DNA of 64,000 bases from Candidatus Saccharicenans sp. (lineage in GTDB: Bacteria; Acidobacteriota; Aminicenantia; Aminicenantales; Saccharicenantaceae): NCBI GenBank assembly GCA_035416665.1, contig DAOLNQ010000007.1, positions 17,063 through 81,062 of the forward strand, in the 5' to 3' direction. The notes below the pieces were generated by a model. It did not search any database and was not told where the DNA came from. It saw only the letters and a list, made by a program, of their open reading frames with translations. Within the stretch, counting starts at the first letter, position 1; every line of letters starts with the position of its first letter. Below, one piece after another: positions 11,169 through 53,277 of the stretch. Made by a program: the position numbers and the translations under genes.

Positions 11169-11242
11169 GCGCCCGTAGCTCAGCTGGATAGAGCGAAGGA
11201 CTTCGAATCCTGAGGTCGGGAGTTCGAATCTCCCCGGGCGCA
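11169..11242 (+). tRNA. tRNA-Arg (anticodon TCG). CCA not encoded.
   Basis: Cloverleaf read manually. The 7-bp acceptor stem GCGCCCG/CGGGCGC pairs fully. D-arm GCTC-AGCTGGATA-GAGC. Anticodon loop CTTCGAA. T-arm GGGAG-TTCGAAT-CTCCC. Confidence 0.85.
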
Positions 11243-13527: not shown

Positions 13528-13575
13528 ACAGATTGTTTTGTTTGATTTTCTGTGAAGTCTGACTTTAAGAAGAAA

Positions 13576-13663
13576 TGCCGAAGAGGGGACTCGAACCCCT
13601 ACTCCCATTTTTGCGGGAACTAGCCCCTCAAGCTAGCGTGTCTGCCAATTCCACCACTTCGGC
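13576..13663 (-). tRNA. tRNA-Leu (anticodon GAG) with a long variable arm. CCA not encoded.
   Basis: Reverse complement reads GCCGAAGTGGTGGAATTGGCAGACACGCTAGCTTGAGGGGCTAGT...GGGGTTCGAGTCCCCTCTTCGGCA. Anticodon loop TTGAGGG. Immediately downstream of secG. Confidence 0.8.
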
Positions 13664-13677
13664 ATAAAATTAACCGT

Positions 13678-27735: not shown

Positions 27736-27812
27736 TGGGGTGAGTGAGGGGAATCGAACCCCCAACCACTGGATCCACAGTCCAGTGCTCTAACCGTTGA
27801 GCTACACTCACC
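27736..27812 (-). tRNA. tRNA-His (anticodon GTG) with the extra 5' G(-1) and a genomically encoded CCA.
   Basis: Reverse complement: G-GTGAGTG-TA-GCTC-AACGGTT-AGAGC-A-CTGGA-CTGTGGA-TCCAG-TGGTT-GGGGG-TTCGATT-CCCCT-CACTCAC-C-CCA. All 7 acceptor pairs are Watson-Crick. Confidence 0.85.
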
Positions 27813-45365: not shown

Positions 45366-46472
45366 ATGAATGAACCTCTTTTTCCCCGGCGAAAGACAAA
45401 GCTAATCAGAATTGGCCAGGTGGAAATTGGCGGAGGGCGTCCGATTGTTGTTCAATCGATGACCAAGACGAGGACCGCCCGGATCGAGCCGACCGTCAGG
45501 CAAATCAAAAAATTGGAAAAGGCTGGCTGCCAGCTCGTTCGGCTGGCCGTGCCGGAGATGGACGATGCACTGGCCATTAAGGAAATCAAGAAAAAAGTTA
45601 GCCTCCCACTGGTGGCTGATATCCATTTTGACCCTCGCCTGGCCATTGCCTCGATTGAAGCCGGGGTGGATGGTCTGAGGATTAATCCCGGGACTTTCGG
45701 GTCAAAGAGCAAGCTAAAAGAAGTGGTGGAAAGAGCTGGTGAGAGAAAAATCCCGATTAGAATTGGCATAAATTCAGGTTCGCTGGACAAAGATCTAAGG
45801 TCAAAATATGGCGAGGTTACACCGGAAGCCATGGTTGAGAGTGCACTGCGAGAAATCAAGCTGCTGGAAGATCTTGGCTTTTATGATATTAAAATCTCCC
45901 TTAAGGCTTCGGATATCCAGAGGACACTCCGAGCTTATCAGCTGCTGGCTACCCGGGTTGATTATCCTTTCCACGCTGGCATTACTGAGGCTGGGACCCT
46001 GTTCAGAGGTAGCCTGAAGTCAGTAGCCGGTCTGAGCTTGCTGATCAGGGAAGGATTGGCTGATACCATCAGGGTTTCTCTGACTGCCCCACCAGAAAGA
46101 GAAGTGGAAGTGGCTAATCTCCTTTTGCAGGACCTTGGCCTGAAAAAAGGGGGAATAAATTTTATTTCCTGTCCTGGTTGCGGCCGCAGCCAGGTTGATA
46201 TTCAGAAACTGGCCACTCAGGTAGAGCGGAGAATTTCAACCCTTAAAAGCAGTCTGACCGTGGCCGTCATGGGCTGCCCGGTCAATGGTCCAGGCGAAGC
46301 TAAAGAGGCTGATCTGGGGGTGGCCTGCGGGCAAGGGACAGGCGTCATCTTCAAAAAGGGAAAAGTTATCAAGAAAGTTCCGGCCGATATGATTGTTGAT
46401 GAACTGGTTAAGGAAGTCTTCAAACTGGTAGATGAAAAGGGAAAAGCAGAAGAGGGGAATACTCGTGGCTGA
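45366..46472 (+). CDS. ispG: 4-hydroxy-3-methylbut-2-en-1-yl diphosphate synthase (IspG/GcpE).
   Basis: FISCPGCGRSQVD and CPVNGPGEA cluster-binding motifs. Confidence 0.9.
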   Translation: MNEPLFPRRKTKLIRIGQVEIGGGRPIVVQSMTKTRTARIEPTVRQIKKLEKAGCQLVRLAVPEMDDALAIKEIKKKVSLPLVADIHFDPRLAIASIEAGVDGLRINPGTFGSKSKLKEVVERAGERKIPIRIGINSGSLDKDLRSKYGEVTPEAMVESALREIKLLEDLGFYDIKISLKASDIQRTLRAYQLLATRVDYPFHAGITEAGTLFRGSLKSVAGLSLLIREGLADTIRVSLTAPPEREVEVANLLLQDLGLKKGGINFISCPGCGRSQVDIQKLATQVERRISTLKSSLTVAVMGCPVNGPGEAKEADLGVACGQGTGVIFKKGKVIKKVPADMIVDELVKEVFKLVDEKGKAEEGNTRG

Positions 46473-47361
46473 CACCAGGAGCCGATCCAGCAGAAGTCGG
46501 TCAAAAAGCAAGCCGAAGGCGGTCAAATCCAGAAGAATTTCGGAACAGCTGGGAGCAGACTTAATTCAAAAGTATGAAAGATTAAAAGAGGAAATAAAAT
46601 CAACTGAAAGTGCTCTGGTGGCTTTTTCAGGCGGGGTGGACAGCAGCCTTCTCCTGCGGGTGGCGGCCGATGTGCTTGGAGATAGGGTTAAAGCTGTTAT
46701 TGTTGATAGCCCCCTTTTCAGCCGCCAGGAAATTCAGGCAGCCAGAAGACTGGCTGCTGATCTTAAAGTTTACCTGATGACTGTCCAGGTTAACAGTCTG
46801 GAAGTACCCGGGGTAACTAAAAATACTGATCAGCGCTGTTATTACTGTAAATTTTCTATTTTTCCCAGGTTAAAGGAAGCAGCCAGAGAGATGGGCCTTA
46901 ATCAAGTCCTGGAAGGCTCCAACCTGGATGATGCCGCCGACTACCGTCCGGGGAGAAAAGCCCTCCGGGAGCTTGGCATCTCTTCACCTCTGGCGGAAGC
47001 GGGTTTGACCAAAGCAGAAATCAGACAGCTGGCCAGATATCTTGGTCTTCCTAACTGGAATAAGCCTCAAGCCGCCTGTCTGGCTTCCAGAATTCCTTAT
47101 GGGCAGCCACTTGATCGAGCTATCCTGGAGAAAATTGAAAAAGGGGAAAAGATAATCAGACAGCAGGGCTTCAGTCAGGTCAGGTTAAGACACCATGGAG
47201 AGCTGGCCAGAATTGAAATTGACTGGAAAGAATTTCCACTGTGGCTTAAACCCGGGATAAGGGAAAAAGTGGTCGCCAGTTTGAAAAAACTTGGCTATCG
47301 CTATATAACTCTTGATCTGGACGGCTATCGCACTGGCAGCCTTAATCCTTCCCATAGGTGA
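46432..47361 (+). CDS. PP-loop ATP pyrophosphatase of the LarE/TIGR00268-like family, with an Arg/Ser-rich N-terminal extension. The start is uncertain (a GTG at 46465 is possible).
   Basis: LVAFSGGVDSS PP-loop. CYYC plus AACLASR cysteine motifs. Overlaps the ispG 3' end. Confidence 0.65.
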   Translation: MKREKQKRGILVADTRSRSSRSRSKSKPKAVKSRRISEQLGADLIQKYERLKEEIKSTESALVAFSGGVDSSLLLRVAADVLGDRVKAVIVDSPLFSRQEIQAARRLAADLKVYLMTVQVNSLEVPGVTKNTDQRCYYCKFSIFPRLKEAAREMGLNQVLEGSNLDDAADYRPGRKALRELGISSPLAEAGLTKAEIRQLARYLGLPNWNKPQAACLASRIPYGQPLDRAILEKIEKGEKIIRQQGFSQVRLRHHGELARIEIDWKEFPLWLKPGIREKVVASLKKLGYRYITLDLDGYRTGSLNPSHR

Positions 47362-48357: not shown

Positions 48358-49062
48358 TCAGGATTCAAAGATAAGTGGCCTGAAATATTTTTCAGTGGCC
48401 TTAAAAACTACCTGGCTGCTCATCAAATTGCGCCAGAGAGATTGAGACAGTTCGTCGGAGACTATAAACAGACCGGCTGTGTCCAGGCCATAGAATTCCG
48501 AAAAAGCCAGAACGGCCGAGATTTCCATATCAACCGCCATTGCCCCTCTTTTCTGCATTTTTTCCACCCAGGAGCGGGTCTCACGATAAGGAGCATCAGT
48601 GGAAACTATGGTGCCTTCGGCATAAGGCAAATCTCTGGCTACAAGATAATCAACCAGTCGCTGGCGCCTGGTGGTTGAAACCCGGAAGAGCCCATCTTCT
48701 CCGGGCAGATAATGGCTGGATGTTCCTTCGTCAGAGAGAGCGCAAAGGGGTAGAAAAGCCTGGCCAATCCTAAGAGATTCAGACAGCGAGCCGCAGTAAC
48801 TGAGGACAATTATCTCCTTCAAATTCCCCAGCCTGATTTTTTCCAGTGTACTAACACTGGCAGAGGCCCCGACCGGGCCGTAGAGGACAGCCTGCTCTTT
48901 GAAATAAAAAAGCTGGGACTGGTGAAGATTGACCTTCTGGCTGGCTTTTTTCCTCAGGTCTGAGGCAAAGGACTTGAAAGGCATAAAAGGGATAAATATT
49001 AGACGACCAGCTGGTATTTCTGGTCCGGAAAAAGAAGGTCTGGCAATAGATTCTTCTCTCAT
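48358..49062 (-). CDS. Nucleoside phosphorylase-family protein (PNP_UDP_1 fold; an MTA/SAH nucleosidase or futalosine-hydrolase-like enzyme is possible).
   Basis: GPVGASASVSTL (GxGxxxAA-like) and AVDMEISAV (MTAN-like ME motif). Confidence 0.55.
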   Translation of the reverse strand: MREESIARPSFSGPEIPAGRLIFIPFMPFKSFASDLRKKASQKVNLHQSQLFYFKEQAVLYGPVGASASVSTLEKIRLGNLKEIIVLSYCGSLSESLRIGQAFLPLCALSDEGTSSHYLPGEDGLFRVSTTRRQRLVDYLVARDLPYAEGTIVSTDAPYRETRSWVEKMQKRGAMAVDMEISAVLAFSEFYGLDTAGLFIVSDELSQSLWRNLMSSQVVFKATEKYFRPLIFES

Positions 49063-49118
49063 GTTCAAAATAAGTTAGCAAATTTAGCTCTGGCTGGCAA
49101 CCCCTCAGGCTGACGTTG

Positions 49119-49147
49119 TTTACAAAATTCCAGTCGTTCCGTAGAAT
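49119..49147 (+). promoter_or_regulatory. Putative promoter TTTACA-17-TAGAAT. The +1 is predicted at the ATG of the ParB-like gene (leaderless).
   Basis: Hexamers with a 17-nt spacer. The -10 ends 6 nt before the ATG at 49154. No SD sequence. Confidence 0.4.
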
Positions 49148-49153
49148 TAAAGC

Positions 49154-50119
49154 ATGGAATTGAGGCCAATTAGTCTGGAGGAAATTAATTTTGATGATAC
49201 CAGGTTCAGGTTTTCCCTCGATAGAGCCGATGAGAAGCTAATCTTTTCAATCCAGCGAGCAGGACTGATTGAACCGGTCATTGTCAAAAGCGCTGGCCGG
49301 GCTTTTATTCTGGTGACTGGTTGGAGGAGGGTAGAGGCTTCCCGGGAAGCTGGTTTAAAAGAGATCCCGGCGCTGGTCATGCCTTCAGGGTGGACAGATC
49401 TCTCTCTTTTCAGCCTGGCTTTTTTTGAAAGTTATCCCAGGAAGGATTTCTCCTTAGCAGAGAAAGCTTTGATCATTAAGAAGTTCATAGAGTTCGGGCT
49501 CAGCCCGGAAGAAGTAATCGAGGAATTTCTTACCCGGTTAGAGTTACCACCGGAAAGGCAGACGATTGATCTTCTCAGACAACTGGCCAGTTTAGACTGG
49601 GCTTTGCCATCTATCCATCGCGGCCGCTGGAAAATCTCGACAGCCAGGCTTTTTTTATCCTTCTTTCCTGAAGAAAGAAGAGCTATTCTTGACCTGGGTG
49701 AGGCCTTGAACCACAACCAGCAGGCTGAGCTGATTGAACTTCTCTTTACTCTTAAGAAAAGGCAGAAGGTGGGGCTGGACACCATTCTGACTGAAGAAGA
49801 GATTAAACCACTGGTTCAGGCAGTCAGAGAAAAACAGCCTCGCGCCGGACTGGAGCTGCTGACCGCCTTGAGGAAGAGGACTTTTCCTCTGGTGACTGAG
49901 ATTAACCGGCAGATGCAAGCTGCTTTAAGGCAAATTAACCTGCCAGGGAATAGTCGTCTCGACTACGATCATTCACTCGAAAAGAGCTCTCTCACTATCA
50001 GTTTTGAAGCCAGAACAAGGGAGGAAATGGAAGTTGTGGTTGAACAGCTAAAGCAGAAGGTAAAGGAAGGCGAGTTAGATGTTTTATTTGGACTTTTAAA
50101 CAAAAAGATTGGTAAGTAG
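49154..50119 (+). CDS. ParB/Sulfiredoxin N-terminal-domain protein (ParB-like nuclease/CTPase fold) with a helical C-terminal region of unknown function.
   Basis: ParB-N signature ...IQRAGLIEPVIV...ILVTGWRRVEASREAG (GxRR motif). Confidence 0.65.
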   Translation: MELRPISLEEINFDDTRFRFSLDRADEKLIFSIQRAGLIEPVIVKSAGRAFILVTGWRRVEASREAGLKEIPALVMPSGWTDLSLFSLAFFESYPRKDFSLAEKALIIKKFIEFGLSPEEVIEEFLTRLELPPERQTIDLLRQLASLDWALPSIHRGRWKISTARLFLSFFPEERRAILDLGEALNHNQQAELIELLFTLKKRQKVGLDTILTEEEIKPLVQAVREKQPRAGLELLTALRKRTFPLVTEINRQMQAALRQINLPGNSRLDYDHSLEKSSLTISFEARTREEMEVVVEQLKQKVKEGELDVLFGLLNKKIGK

Positions 50120-50127
50120 CTAATTGT

Positions 50128-51216
50128 ATGCAGCAGAATAATTGGATAAAAAAGATCTACGTCAACAGGCAGGTTGAAAATTCTCCGCTGGTGGAAAGAA
50201 TAATAAGCCGGCTAAAACCAACTCCTGTTCAGCTGGTTGACCGGTTGGAGGAAATTCAGGCGGAGCTACGTCTGGCCACTGACCCCATCGCCGAGAGCAA
50301 AAGAGTTTTGTTTTTAACCGGTGAGAAGGCTTTTATTCGTCCCTGTCCCTGCAGTCCGGGGGCTGTTCCCTGTGGCTACTGGACTGTTGACCTTAATCTT
50401 AACTGTCCGTTTGATTGTAGCTATTGCATTCTTCAGGTCTATTTTAACCTGCAACCTCTAACCATAGCTGTCAACCAGGGAGATCTGGAGAGCGAACTGG
50501 ATGCTTTTCTGGCTGACACCAGAAATAATTTGCTTAGAATTGGTACAGGTGAACTGGGAGATTCCCTGGCTCTGGAGGCAATATCCGGCCAGGCTTCTTT
50601 CCTGATAGATTTATTTCGAAATAAAAAGGGAGTCTGGCTTGAGCTCAAGACAAAGACGGCGGCTATTAATTCTCTGCTGACCTCTCCGGCCTCAGAAAAC
50701 GTAATTTTTGCCTGGTCGCTTAATACAGAGAGAATAATCAAGATGGAGGAAATTGGCTCGGCCAGTCTGGCGGAAAGACTCAGGTCAGCTGAAAAAGCAG
50801 TTGAACGCGGTTTTAAGGTGGCCTTTCACTTTGACCCGATAATTTATTATTCAGGCTGGGAAAAAGAATATGGCGAAGTCTGTGAAGCTTTATTAAAAAA
50901 GATACCGCTGGCGGCCATAGCCTGGGTCAGCCTGGGAACTCTACGTTTTCCGGGAAAACTAAGGGAAATAGCCAGGCATAGATTTCCCCGTAGTTCGATC
51001 TATGAAGAAGAAATGGTTAGATCGTGGGATGGGAAATTCAGATACCCGCGGCCTTTAAGGATGAAAATATATCAAACGCTGACAGATATATTTAAAGCTC
51101 ATGATGCTGGCGATAAGCTTTATCTTTGTATGGAATCACCTGAGGTCTGGCAGAATTTTTCCAAACAAAATAAAAAGGGGAAGCAACTCGCTTCCCCTTT
51201 TTTCTGGCATAAATAA
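50128..51216 (+). CDS. Radical SAM protein of the spore-photoproduct-lyase (SplB/COG1533) family.
   Basis: CPFDCSYCILQ CxxxCxxC motif in an SPL-like context. About 360 aa. Follows the ParB-like gene by 8 nt. Confidence 0.65.
   Translation: MQQNNWIKKIYVNRQVENSPLVERIISRLKPTPVQLVDRLEEIQAELRLATDPIAESKRVLFLTGEKAFIRPCPCSPGAVPCGYWTVDLNLNCPFDCSYCILQVYFNLQPLTIAVNQGDLESELDAFLADTRNNLLRIGTGELGDSLALEAISGQASFLIDLFRNKKGVWLELKTKTAAINSLLTSPASENVIFAWSLNTERIIKMEEIGSASLAERLRSAEKAVERGFKVAFHFDPIIYYSGWEKEYGEVCEALLKKIPLAAIAWVSLGTLRFPGKLREIARHRFPRSSIYEEEMVRSWDGKFRYPRPLRMKIYQTLTDIFKAHDAGDKLYLCMESPEVWQNFSKQNKKGKQLASPFFWHK
51177..51203. terminator. Bidirectional intrinsic terminator. An 8-bp GC stem (GGGGAAGC/GCTTCCCC) is flanked by TTTTTT on the plus strand and TTTTT on the minus strand.
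   Basis: Sits inside the last codons of the 50128-51216 gene and 38 nt downstream of the convergent exbD stop. Confidence 0.5.
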
Positions 51217-52420: not shown

Positions 52421-53200
52421 TTACTTTAGTTTGAACTGAACAGTAACCGTAAAGATAACGCCCCGTGGACGGCCATTGATTATCATCGGTTCATAAACCC
52501 ACTGTTTGACGGCATCAATAGCTGCTTGATCGAGCAAGGGGACAGATCTCAAAACTTTAACCTGCTGGACTCGACCATAGATATCAGTGGTCGCTTCCAG
52601 AATAACTGTACCTTCTACTCTGGCCTGGCGGGCGATTTCGGGATAAACGGGCTCAACCCTGTGTATTAACTTCGGCTGTTTAATTTCGCCAATAGCTCTT
52701 ACCGGTTCCTCTTGCTGAATCTCGCTGCCAATAACTCCGCCCAGGACTCCACCGACAACTCCACCCAGGACTCCGCCAACGACTCCACCTTCAACTCCAC
52801 CTTCAACTCCGCCTTCAACTCCAAAATCAGAAATTGCTTCTTGAGCAATCTGATCAGGTATTTCAACTGGAGCGACTAATCTACCAGGCTCAACAGAAGT
52901 CGTAGCCTGGACAGCTTTAATGGTTCTCGTGGATGTACTCTTTTTCTTGGCTGGTGGTGGTGGCGGTGGCGGCGGTGGCGGGGGGGGAGCCAGGAAGGCG
53001 CTATAGACCTCTACTTTTGGTAGATCATCTACAGACAGCAGAGGAATAACAATAATAGCGGCAATAAAAACAGCGTGGAGGATAATAGCAATGGGTAAAG
53101 CCAGCGCTTTTCTTTTAATCCCCGACTCGGCCTGGAAGAAGGAATCCTTGAAGAGTTCAGGTAACTCTTCTCCTTGTTTAGGCCTTTTTGCTTCTGGCAT
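52421..53200 (-). CDS. tonB: Energy transducer TonB (canonical: TM with His, poly-Pro spacer, Gly-rich repeats and a TonB_C domain).
   Basis: TM ...IAIILHAVFIAAII. P14 tract. C-terminal IHRVEPVYPEIARQARVEGTV...VKQWVYEP. ATG at 53200 (GAGG RBS). The track's 53212 start is GTG. Confidence 0.85.
   Translation of the reverse strand: MPEAKRPKQGEELPELFKDSFFQAESGIKRKALALPIAIILHAVFIAAIIVIPLLSVDDLPKVEVYSAFLAPPPPPPPPPPPPAKKKSTSTRTIKAVQATTSVEPGRLVAPVEIPDQIAQEAISDFGVEGGVEGGVEGGVVGGVLGGVVGGVLGGVIGSEIQQEEPVRAIGEIKQPKLIHRVEPVYPEIARQARVEGTVILEATTDIYGRVQQVKVLRSVPLLDQAAIDAVKQWVYEPMIINGRPRGVIFTVTVQFKLK
52731..52822 (-). repeat. In-frame tandem 15-nt repeat inside tonB encoding (GGVEG)3-(GGVxG)n.
   Basis: Repeating ...ccaccttcaactcc... 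units on the plus strand. Translates to GGVEGGVEGGVEGGVVGGVLGGVVGGVLGGVIG. Confidence 0.7.
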
Positions 53201-53277
53201 GTTAAACCTCACGCTCTTAATTTAGATTAGACTAAATTATAAGTTAAAAAAATCTATTTTACAAGTCAAATATTTAA

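Follow-up and report, generated by a model that had tools for sequence, protein, structure and literature searches.

A conserved operon of a ParB paralog and a radical SAM enzyme of the spore photoproduct lyase superfamily points to a possible, as yet undescribed system for the repair or modification of DNA

ParB proteins have lately been recognised as CTP-dependent molecular switches. Noc, KorB, VirB and PadC recruit membranes, repressors or cytoskeletal partners. Noc and KorB are paralogs with a partner other than ParA, and PadC of Myxococcus xanthus (PDB 6RYK) is an adaptor for ParA and bactofilin. We know of no ParB paralog for which an enzyme, such as a radical SAM (rSAM) protein, has been described as the partner. 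In Bacillus subtilis ParB, the CTP-binding residues include G77 and R80, and in PadC an aromatic residue at the ParB E78 position, beside the gamma-phosphate, accompanies CTP binding without hydrolysis (PMC8494293). DndB, another protein of the ParB superfamily, regulates Dnd DNA phosphorothioation; it is encoded with this DNA-modifying enzyme system and acts on it (PMC10853773).

Among rSAM enzymes, spore photoproduct lyase (SPL; SplB, TIGR04070, PDB 4FHC) acts on DNA. It uses a fourth conserved cysteine, Cys140 of Bacillus, as H-atom donor (PMC3467042).

Here we analyse a locus in which a ParB-like gene precedes an rSAM gene of the SPL superfamily. The host is a Saccharicenans-like Aminicenantes bacterium, and the window, the whole stretch of DNA that was analysed, is 64,000 nt long. 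The features of the locus are:

48358..49068, minus strand: PNP_UDP_1 family ORF, 236 aa (Pfam), divergent from the pair
49119..49147, plus strand: promoter-like site TTTACA-17-TAGAAT (consensus scan, prediction only)
49154..50119, plus strand: ParB paralog ORF, 321 aa (read from the sequence; Pfam ParB_N)
50128..51216, plus strand: SPL-superfamily rSAM ORF, 362 aa (read from the sequence; Pfam SPL)
51172..51202, no strand given: strong hairpin between an A-run and a T-run, terminator-like in both directions (terminator scan; sequence)

Both ORFs have the lengths given in the initial annotation, and the rSAM ORF begins after a spacer of 8 nt (50120-50127). The predicted promoter, whose first position is also the start coordinate of that annotation, agrees with the consensus at 10 of 12 positions and ends 6 nt upstream of the ATG of the ParB-like gene. 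It suggests a leaderless or near-leaderless transcript. At the other end, a bidirectional terminator had been proposed. A hairpin of 14 pairs does exist (A5-GGGGAAGC...GCTTCCCC-T6), 33 nt past the stop of the convergent exbD gene, but it lies inside the 3' end of the rSAM ORF and not after it: it falls within the last ~15 codons, and the stop codon is at 51214-51216. The neighbours of the pair in the window are the PNP gene, a 2-hydroxyacid dehydrogenase, LarE and ExbD/B.

A ParB paralog, full-length by alignment

Judged by its alignments, the partner of the rSAM protein is a divergent full-length ParB paralog, and we propose that it represents a new class. A ParB N-domain had been proposed for this protein, which carries VTGWRRVEASREAG at residues 54-67, and Pfam agrees (ParB_N, 38.9 bits against a cutoff of 26.3, residues 4-77). 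The homology extends well past this domain. In hhalign against canonical ParBs (99.5%, E 1.6e-22), query residues 8-313 align to template 30-290 over 258 columns, a span that takes in the N-domain, the HTH and the C-terminal domain. By alignment the protein is homologous to ParB/Spo0J, Noc, KorB and VirB over all three regions. Profile searches of the PDB return ParB, Spo0J and Noc at 1e-21 to 1e-22, whereas the matches to SerK and SbnI are weak (~1e-3, compared with ~1e-22 for ParB and Noc). The AF2 model (pLDDT 91.9) finds ParB-CTPgammaS (probability 1.00), Noc and KorB in Foldseek, with PadC also among the structural matches.

At its N-terminus the protein has a domain of the nucleotide-binding CTPase fold. 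A helical/HTH region occupies the centre, and an insertion of ~45 residues separates it from a C-terminal beta-beta-alpha unit, which hhalign aligns to the ParB dimerisation domain. Pfam ParB_C has no match in the ParB-like proteins scanned, and the isolated C-terminal domain model has no PDB match in Foldseek. Pfam HTH_ParB matches 1 of 15 partners; the profile-profile and PDB profile alignments do cross the HTH region. Across the family, which comprises about 1210 clusters at 50% identity, the middle region shows little conservation and no consistent basic character.

The nucleotide-binding glycine and arginine of ParB clamps are invariant here too: the equivalents of G77 and R80, G56 and R59, are present in all 64 members. 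The box I arginine (R19) is kept in 49 of the 64, and E92, N93 and R97 of box III are ~90% conserved. E92, the equivalent of E111 in ENLQR, is found in 58/64 members including the window protein. In this protein and its own clade N93 is a serine, a degenerate form of box III that may weaken nucleotide hydrolysis and perhaps also gating. The glutamate of GERR (E78) is replaced by Trp in 54/64 members and by Phe or Tyr in the others. An aromatic residue at this position is shared with PadC. PadC, however, has neither an ENLQR box nor the HTH/C architecture of ParB, whereas the family described here keeps box III in about 90% of its members and, by alignment, the full ParB architecture.

Further differences from ParB clamps are the insertion, which precedes the C-domain, and two motifs specific to the family, RYPxL and PFFEG. 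The N-terminal ParA-interacting peptide LGxGLxAL is absent, the hhalign alignment beginning only at template column 30, and the window contains neither a ParA gene nor a parS-like repeated palindrome. Nor did we find a motif common to the upstream regions of the pair. A plasmid-partition or ParAB locus, which the initial annotation had named as the case that would speak against its reading, is not what the window holds: there is no ParA or canonical ParB, and the flanks are housekeeping genes. DndB belongs to another subfamily. The Dnd system has no rSAM-superfamily enzyme and is mobile and defence-type, in contrast to the housekeeping-like module here.

The operon across phyla

The ParB-like gene and the rSAM gene form a dedicated conserved operon, and they are paired far beyond chance. 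The pairing is found in 68 of 80 loci of GTDB species representatives and in 49 of the 56 informative metagenome loci, which were seeded with an rSAM protein from outside the Aminicenantes. Starting from the ParB side, six out of six look-ups recovered the pair. It occurs in Aminicenantes, Thermodesulfobacteriota, Zixibacteria and KSB1. The two genes often overlap, and the flanking genes vary from phylum to phylum. In eight loci (L001-L008) the ParB-like gene lies directly upstream of the rSAM gene, commonly with an overlap of 1-35 nt. The two proteins also co-evolve. Their pairwise distances correlate at r=0.89 (partial correlation 0.87), compared with 0.35-0.46 for either protein against ExbB or ExbD and 0.67 for ExbB against ExbD.

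Hence the pairing proposed in the initial annotation is genuine and dedicated, and homologs of the two genes do co-occur elsewhere. The pairing had not been recognised there as a known one, and we found no description of it in the searchable literature. Within Aminicenantes, adjacency by itself proves little because the entire neighbourhood is syntenic: isoprenoid, Sec and Ton genes are kept nearby across the whole class. In Omnitrophota, Sumerlaeota, Nitrospinota, Auribacterota and some Desulfobacterota the rSAM gene is present without a ParB-like partner, so the enzyme should be able to work alone. No homologs of the module were found in viral contigs, and the PADLOC defence-system models gave no significant match for the ParB-like protein, the rSAM protein or the glycosyltransferase described below.

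The pair had also been called an isolated two-gene unit. It is indeed the constant core, but in many genomes a PNP-family or GT2 gene travels along, each of the two being missing from many loci. The divergent gene of the window was correctly seen as a member of the nucleoside phosphorylase family (PNP_UDP_1, 74 bits in Pfam). Its product resembles DeoD-type PNP and archaeal MTA phosphorylase (PDB matches 2ac7 and 1jds), and all its NCBIfam scores are under cutoff, the best being AMP nucleosidase (56 bits against 264). In about 45 loci a PNP gene adjoins the pair; in some of these it lies on the same strand, and two of them are outside the Aminicenantes. In Sumerlaeota, a different, MTAN-like PNP_UDP_1 gene overlaps the rSAM gene, and its product is again under the cutoffs (MTAN 69 against 169, HpnG 60 against 187, MqnB 58 against 125). 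Two distinct PNP_UDP_1 subfamilies have therefore been recruited beside the rSAM gene. From its adjacency, the gene in the window is a probable accessory component. It possibly encodes a nucleosidase or phosphorylase that acts on 5'-deoxyadenosine or on an adenosyl product related to it. Known parallels to an rSAM gene recurrently beside a PNP_UDP_1 gene are the pairs MqnE/MqnB and HpnH/HpnG, together with the clearance of 5'-deoxyadenosine by Pfs/MTAN.

The GT2 gene encodes a soluble glycosyltransferase and is absent from the window's own lineage. GT2, ParB-like and rSAM genes stand together as a triad in 28 loci from metagenomes and 7 from genomes, and in one locus (L086) the rSAM gene is displaced while GT2 remains with the ParB-like gene. 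Matches of GT2 to TAGT and glucosyl-HMC transferase models are weak, under cutoff and generic for GT2. The arrangement, a soluble GT-A/GT2 enzyme encoded with putatively DNA-directed proteins, can be likened to DNA base glycosylation systems, namely phage hmC glucosyltransferases and TET/JBP-associated glycosyltransferases; no TET/JBP oxygenase accompanies it. One lineage also has a small basic HeH/Rho_N protein alongside the module.

An SPL-like enzyme with altered residues

The assignment of the second gene to the SPL family, first made from CPFDCSYCILQ (residues 93-103), is borne out by Pfam (SPL, PF20903: 83 bits, cutoff 27). All listed rSAM homologs carry PF20903, and SPL (4fhc/4rh0, 1e-31 to 1e-33) is the only solved relative in PDB profile searches. 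Yet the protein scores only 93 bits against the SplB equivalog TIGR04070, far under the cutoff of 400. It also differs from SplB in having a dedicated ParB-type partner and in being carried by anaerobes not known to sporulate. An SPL-family protein in a genome that appears not to sporulate had been thought notable. In itself it is not, as thousands of members occur in such lineages.

We mapped residues across 89 family members. With SplB the family shares the fold, Tyr96 and the cluster motif CxxxCxxC. C93, C97 and C100, as well as K176 and S197, are kept in 88-89 of the 89 members; the last two correspond to the SAM ligands K174 and S195 of SPL. The phosphate ligand R273 corresponds to R273 here and is 100% conserved. 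The basic-aromatic hairpin seems to be shared as well. K303-x-R305-Y306 is invariant and no more than one residue away from R304/Y305, the hairpin tip of SPL, and the invariant R311 is within 1-2 residues of the expected position of Lys309, a further phosphate ligand of SPL; we infer both equivalences from position, as the HMMER alignment with SPL ends at residue 298.

The residues for SPL catalysis and thymine recognition are replaced. At the position of Cys140 stands Glu142 of GTGExxDS in every one of the 89 members, and at that of Tyr98, which SPL conserves strictly beside the third cluster cysteine, stands Ile101 in 86 of them. Among the thymine contacts, R193 becomes Ser or Ala (position 195) and E268 an invariant glycine (Gly270), and Tyr339 is beyond the alignment. 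SPL-type chemistry, on which the initial annotation had leaned, should not be assumed. Other signature motifs, besides GTGExxDS and K-x-R-Y, are HFDP and CME, and the median pI of the family is 8.9.

In addition, the family has four conserved cysteines on or near the substrate loop that SplB does not have: C73, C75 (C81 in other phyla), C82 and C334. In 19 of the 89 members position 75 is glycine, and in these a cysteine stands at position 81. As a sequence pattern, this swap is more in keeping with a metal ligand than with an H donor. Ser76, the position of the Clostridium-type donor cysteine, is paired with C75 by HMMER and with P72 by MAFFT, which aligns SPL Lys77 and Ser79 with C73 and C75. 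Together the four cysteines suggest a second metal site.

Proposed mechanism and alternatives

We propose that the operon acts on nucleic acid, most likely DNA, through a chemistry other than spore photoproduct repair, a reading in which we have middling confidence. DNA repair or DNA modification, as the initial annotation had suggested, appears to be the best reading, and it is reinforced by the partner being a complete ParB paralog. A UV lesion is improbable as the target, since the lineages that carry the module inhabit dark and anoxic environments. The ParB paralog would dimerise through its C-terminal domain, bind nucleotide (probably CTP) in the N-domain and contact DNA via its HTH region. 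It may serve as a clamp or adaptor that is gated by nucleotide, hydrolyses it slowly or not at all, and recruits, positions or activates the rSAM enzyme on DNA. The rSAM enzyme would then flip a nucleotide into an SPL-like pocket, using the K-x-R-Y hairpin and the phosphate-binding Arg273, and cleave SAM to a 5'-deoxyadenosyl radical that abstracts a hydrogen atom. The putative Cys4-bound metal site, replacing the SPL loop that holds the 3'-thymine, could help to finish the reaction. SAM is probably consumed stoichiometrically because the Cys140/Tyr98 relay that regenerates it in SPL is absent. The neighbouring PNP/MTAN-family enzyme may dispose of 5'-deoxyadenosine or the adenosyl product. 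In other phyla, the soluble GT2 of the operon may glycosylate the radical product, which would point to modification of DNA, and not its simple repair, in those lineages.

A more specific and more speculative form of this proposal is, in our view, rather unlikely as it stands. The ParB paralog would be a new class of ParB-type nucleotide-gated DNA clamp with an enzyme as cargo, a two-metal-site rSAM protein that functionalises a flipped base without oxygen. For example, hydrogen could be abstracted from the methyl group or ring of a pyrimidine, with a glycosylated product in lineages that carry GT2. The outcome might be an anaerobic chromosomal route to a hypermodified, base-J-like DNA base, or the reversal of radical-induced cross-links in anoxic cells.

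Sugar or nucleoside chemistry would account for the GT2 and nucleosidase partners just as well, and a non-DNA substrate is possible. The leading alternative is accordingly a small-molecule or glycoconjugate pathway, which we consider unlikely while giving it some weight. Here the rSAM enzyme would act on a nucleotide, nucleoside or NDP-sugar, perhaps by adding the 5'-deoxyadenosyl radical, as MqnE and HpnH do to their substrates. Removal of the adenine would fall to a PNP/MTAN-family enzyme and transfer of the sugar to GT2, with the ParB/Srx-fold protein as an NTP-dependent enzyme or regulator and not a DNA clamp. The presence of GT2 in the operon (28+7 loci) and its staying with the ParB-like gene in L086 fit this pathway, as do the PNP-family partners that score best against MTAN, HpnG and futalosine hydrolase, the loss of the SPL thymine contacts and the ability of the R273/K309 site of SPL to hold pyrophosphate. 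ParB/Srx-fold kinases (SerK and SbnI) do exist, but the partner matches them far more weakly than it matches DNA-binding ParB, to which it is homologous in full length, HTH and dimerisation domains included. Moreover, GT2 and PNP are often missing from around a constant ParB-rSAM core, the vicinity has no other conserved genes for sugar nucleotides or polysaccharides, and the rSAM protein is unrelated to MqnE or HpnH (NCBIfam). An RNA target (tRNA or rRNA) is improbable. Certain two-cluster rSAM enzymes modify RNA, and the predicted Cys4 site resembles their general layout; the enzyme is basic, and its context is housekeeping, vertically inherited and syntenic. The two-metal-site enzyme would act on a flipped RNA base, with the ParB-like protein as an RNA or ribonucleoprotein adaptor, but ParB-family proteins are dsDNA binders, SPL as the closest relative with a known substrate acts on DNA, and domain scans detected no RNA-binding domains.

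Less probable still is a self/non-self epigenetic mark or anti-phage module resembling restriction-modification, with the ParB paralog regulating as DndB does. The ParB superfamily has precedents in DNA modification and defence systems, and GT2 could glycosylate DNA, as phage and kinetoplastid enzymes do. The stable synteny with isoprenoid, Sec and Ton genes throughout the Aminicenantes class argues against such a module, as do the lack of PADLOC matches for the three proteins, the lack of viral-contig homologs and the fact that no conserved nuclease or restriction partner and no mobile-element context was seen. Only a very slight chance is left for a genuine spore photoproduct lyase repairing 5-thyminyl-5,6-dihydrothymine. 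The Pfam match, the solved relative, the SAM ligands and R273 are what one would expect of it; the equivalog score, the replacement of Cys140, Tyr98, R193 and E268 and the extra Cys4 motif are not, and they all but refute it. The host lineage is not known to sporulate. The same very slight chance applies to coincidental adjacency, in which the ParB-like protein would have an ordinary role in partition or regulation and no connection with the rSAM enzyme. Synteny would explain it within Aminicenantes, but it is contradicted by overlapping genes that stay paired across phyla between unrelated flanks, by the distance correlation well above that of the neighbours and by the ParB-seeded look-ups, and neither ParA nor the canonical N-terminal peptide is present.

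If the module does act on DNA, as we favour, a widespread ParB paralog dedicated to an rSAM enzyme would extend the CTP switch to the delivery of an enzyme on DNA. The role that the thousands of SPL-family proteins play outside spores could be approached by experiment in this subfamily, where the enzyme comes with a defined partner, with a putative second metal site that can be tested and with glycosyltransferases and nucleosidases as recurrent companions. With DNA as the target, the operon might represent an oxygen-independent pathway of DNA modification or repair in abundant uncultured bacteria of sediments and the subsurface.

The locus and its surroundings

The initial annotation had paired a ParB-fold ORF with a radical SAM ORF of the spore photoproduct lyase (SPL) type. 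Both ORFs are present, separated by the 8 nt it gave (ORF list and sequence), and Pfam recognises both. The divergent nucleoside-phosphorylase-family gene is also where it was described. The features of the locus are as follows.

48358..49068, minus strand: PNP_UDP_1 family gene, divergent, upstream of the ParB paralog
49119-49147, plus strand: promoter-like -35/-10 pair, ending 6 nt 5' of the ParB paralog ATG
49154..50119, plus strand: ParB paralog ("the partner"), 321-aa ORF containing VTGWRRVEASREAG; Pfam ParB_N 38.9 bits (cutoff 26.3)
50128..51216, plus strand: radical SAM enzyme, 362-aa ORF with CPFDCSYCILQ; Pfam SPL 83 bits (cutoff 27)
51172-51202, both directions possible: terminator-like hairpin within the last codons of the enzyme ORF, 33 nt beyond the stop of the convergent exbD

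The locus had been given a start at 49119 because the -35/-10-like pair begins there. No Shine-Dalgarno sequence is visible before the partner's ATG (49119-49154), and the layout suggests that the transcript may be leaderless. The bidirectional terminator said to close the unit is a real hairpin that could work in both directions, but it sits inside the end of the enzyme ORF. It is encoded by the codons for KKGKQLASPFF, the C-terminus of the enzyme. Relatives keep the KGK...PF protein motif with a spacing that would give a much larger hairpin loop. Plus-strand termination at this hairpin would fall before the enzyme's stop codon (51214-51216).

The pair is embedded in housekeeping genes, with dxr-rseP-ispG-larE to one side and exbD-exbB-tonB-secF-secD-yajC-tgt to the other. 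The nearest homologs carry the names Candidatus Saccharicenans or Aminicenantes. LarE, an ATP-dependent sacrificial sulfur transferase, is encoded at 46432-47361 on the plus strand (TIGR00268 equivalog, 320 bits, cutoff 150); in its longest form the ORF shares 41 nt with the end of ispG. Since larE follows ispG throughout the Aminicenantes loci and not in other phyla, it is unlikely to belong to the module. The TonB-like protein downstream of ExbB/ExbD (52421-53212, minus strand) contains 13 consecutive prolines and a (GGVx)n repeat. In an Rfam scan of the window only three tRNAs reach threshold (Arg-TCG 11169-11242, Leu-GAG 13575-13664 and His-GTG 27736-27811), and there is no riboswitch near the operon.

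The pair across phyla

In Aminicenantes the entire neighbourhood of the pair is syntenic. Adjacency within this group is therefore little proof of a connection, and we surveyed more widely. Co-occurrence of ParB-like and SPL-family genes in other genomes, on which the initial annotation had made its proposal depend, is common. Among GTDB species representatives, the ~320-aa partner family lies directly upstream of the enzyme in 68 of 80 loci, usually with an overlap of 1-35 nt; four of the other 12 loci have upstream DNA too short to judge. A metagenome scan seeded with a non-Aminicenantes enzyme recovered the partner in 49 of the 56 loci whose upstream sequence reached 1 kb or more. Searching from the ParB side gives the same picture: an SPL-family gene is immediately downstream in six of six cases, including members just 21-24% identical to the window protein. 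Outside Aminicenantes the pair occurs, among other lineages, in Desulfaltia, Syntrophobacterales, other Thermodesulfobacteriota, Zixibacteria, KSB1 and unclassified MAGs, and there the flanking genes are unrelated. The partner family is large, with ~1,210 clusters at 50% identity in an exhaustive HMM search (E<=1e-30). Nearly all of the best 150 listed are ~320 aa long and match over nearly their whole length.

The two proteins have also co-evolved. Pairwise distances of partner and enzyme correlate with r=0.89 across 52 loci, and the partial correlation is still 0.87 once the ExbB/D signal is removed. Either protein correlates with the adjacent ExbB or ExbD at 0.35-0.46, and ExbB and ExbD, which interact, reach 0.67. 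Against the value for the pair, coincidental adjacency is a poor explanation. Because the pair recurs across phyla with unrelated flanks and its distances correlate, partner and enzyme form a functional unit.

Partner-less copies of the enzyme are found in Omnitrophota, Sumerlaeota, Nitrospinota, Auribacterota and some Desulfobacterota. Two such genes, in Nitrospirae and Nitrospinota MAGs (L072 and L084), are near dnaN. In L072 a canonical parB (ParB_N + HTH_ParB + ParB_C), itself next to a probable parA, lies 2 kb from the enzyme gene. These locations may be a coincidence of origin-proximal position. Elsewhere, a gene of the staphylococcal nuclease family overlaps a partner-less enzyme gene at its 3' end (L088:7077-7772), and a lysine-2,3-aminomutase-like radical SAM gene abuts the enzyme gene on its upstream side (L077:4801-5973). 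In one metagenome lineage, the next gene after that of the enzyme is an ORF of ~186 aa that belongs to the IS200-like Y1 transposase family (L102:6051-6608 and 13 other loci).

Residue patterns in the two proteins

The profile of the partner family, built from 15 diverse members, matches solved ParB, Spo0J and Noc structures at 1e-21 to 1e-22 over the N-domain and HTH region. An AlphaFold model of the partner (pLDDT 91.9) has ParB-CTPgammaS, Spo0J, Noc and KorB among its structural matches. Compared profile against profile with 11 canonical ParBs, the family scores a probability of 99.5% (E 1.6e-22, 258 columns); partner residues 8-313 align with positions 30-290 of 294 in the canonical template, and the C-terminal beta-beta-alpha unit falls on the ParB dimerisation domain. 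Because the alignment runs through this domain, the partner reads as a complete ParB paralog. Beyond ParB_N, Pfam recognises only HTH_ParB, in 1 of 15 of these proteins. Foldseek matched an isolated model of the C-terminal domain (pLDDT 83) to nothing in the PDB; we do not read it as a novel domain, since hhalign aligns it with the ParB C-domain.

The partner differs from canonical ParB in two respects. It lacks the N-terminal LGxGLxAL peptide, a region that in canonical ParB contacts ParA, and it carries an insertion of ~45 residues before the C-domain. The window contains neither ParA nor a canonical ParB, which speaks against the plasmid-partition or ParAB locus that the initial annotation had considered. 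Nor was a parS-like site found in the window, sought as a repeated perfect 7+7 palindrome. Comparing 10-mers across 64 upstream regions returned only AT-rich words in common. Three palindromes lie in coding sequence inside the operon, for example over the RFPGK codons, a count not clearly above expectation.

In Bacillus subtilis ParB, G77 and R80 serve CTP binding and E78 and E111 serve hydrolysis; PadC has Phe at the E78 position and does not hydrolyse (PMC8494293). The corresponding G56 and R59 of the partner are invariant in 64 of 64 members. At the E78 position the family has Trp in 54 of 64 and otherwise Phe or Tyr. Box III (E92, N93, R97) is ~90% conserved, with Ser at position 93 in the window's clade. 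We infer that the partner binds a nucleotide, probably CTP, with slow or absent hydrolysis.

For the enzyme, SPL is the sole solved relative (1e-31 to 1e-33, PDB profile search). We mapped the defining residues of SPL, which include the cluster cysteines, Tyr96, Tyr98, Cys140, Lys174/Ser195, Arg193, Glu268, Arg273 and Arg304/Tyr305 (PMC3467042), over 89 family members. The three cluster cysteines, Tyr96, the SAM ligands Lys174 and Ser195, and Arg273 are kept, and a K-x-R-Y motif falls within one residue of the hairpin tip Arg304/Tyr305. Cys140 is replaced by Glu in all 89 members and Tyr98 by Ile in 86; Arg193 becomes Ser or Ala, and Glu268 becomes Gly. With these defining residues replaced, and an SPL equivalog score of 93 bits against a cutoff of 400, the enzyme is not a genuine SPL.

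The family, whose median pI is a basic 8.9, has three additional cysteines in essentially all members: C73, C82 and C334. A further cysteine sits at position 75 in Aminicenantes (PCPC) and at position 81 elsewhere (CPG...CC), a compensatory shift of the kind typical for a metal-binding set. The extra cysteines fall on the SPL loop Ser76-Ser79, which holds the 3'-thymine, and C334 lies a few residues before the position matching the pocket residue Tyr339. Their placement, together with the shift, suggests that a second site, for a metal or an Fe-S cluster, may lie at the substrate pocket.

Accessory genes and possible function

A PNP_UDP_1 gene adjoins the pair in ~45 loci, mostly divergently. 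In L028, L066 and L068 it has the same orientation as the pair and immediately precedes it; L053 and L071 carry the gene as well. The protein in the window is similar to DeoD-type PNP and archaeal MTA phosphorylase. In Sumerlaeota, which lack the partner, the enzyme gene is overlapped at its 3' end by a gene of another PNP_UDP_1 subfamily, which scores best against MTA/SAH nucleosidase, HpnG and futalosine hydrolase, in each case under cutoff. Because two subfamilies were recruited independently, these proteins may cleave 5'-deoxyadenosine or an adenosyl product. Such a role would fit stoichiometric SAM use, which the missing Cys140/Tyr98 relay would imply.

Outside Aminicenantes, 28 metagenome loci and seven genome loci have a gene for a soluble GT2 glycosyltransferase (~277 aa, intact DxD motif) ahead of the partner gene. 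At one locus (L086:914-2766) GT2 and the ParB paralog are adjacent and the enzyme gene is 3.2 kb off, behind two opposite-strand genes, which hints at a direct link between GT2 and the paralog. In 22 loci of one Desulfobacterota-like lineage, a small, very basic protein that starts with a Rho_N/HeH motif and has a coiled-coil tail rich in Lys and Arg is encoded just upstream of GT2:

L101:2767-3105 and 21 other loci, also L075:3713-4096: HeH/Rho_N protein, 113 aa, pI ~10.5

The remaining flanking genes are lineage-specific housekeeping. LarE, a 2-hydroxyacid dehydrogenase and ExbBD/TonB co-occur with the pair only within Aminicenantes synteny, and a block of ClpX, GH57, SDR, Liv transporter and IS200-like ORF reflects synteny in one lineage; we count none of these as module parts.

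The best-supported reading is a ParB-type dimer, its binding to DNA gated by nucleotide and possibly clamp-like, dedicated to a radical SAM enzyme of the SPL superfamily. The enzyme would act on a flipped nucleotide in DNA with a chemistry unlike that of SPL, and the presence of GT2 suggests that the product is glycosylated in some lineages. The main rival puts GT2 and the nucleosidase at the centre of a nucleotide, nucleoside or sugar pathway, with the ParB-fold protein as an NTP-dependent enzyme or regulator. This rival is less likely, as the partner is homologous to DNA-binding ParB over its full length, and it is the ParB-enzyme core that stays constant while the accessories vary. The combination of a radical SAM enzyme and GT2 could also recall RiPP or peptide modification; we rejected this, as the window has no precursor-like small ORF and the context is housekeeping and vertically inherited. 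A defence system appears improbable; defence-system models gave no match, and viral contigs yielded no homolog.

Both proteins belong to known superfamilies, and their database names are generic ('ParB/RepB/Spo0J family partition protein', 'SPL family radical SAM protein'). Neither the partner family nor the enzyme subfamily has a curated model, and we found no description of the pairing in the searchable literature. What appears to be new is that a ParB paralog has an enzyme as its partner, and that this SPL-like enzyme has its catalytic residues remodelled and probably contains a second metal site. In anaerobes the pair likely serves to repair or modify DNA, and it has a reasonable chance of representing a new type of DNA-directed system.
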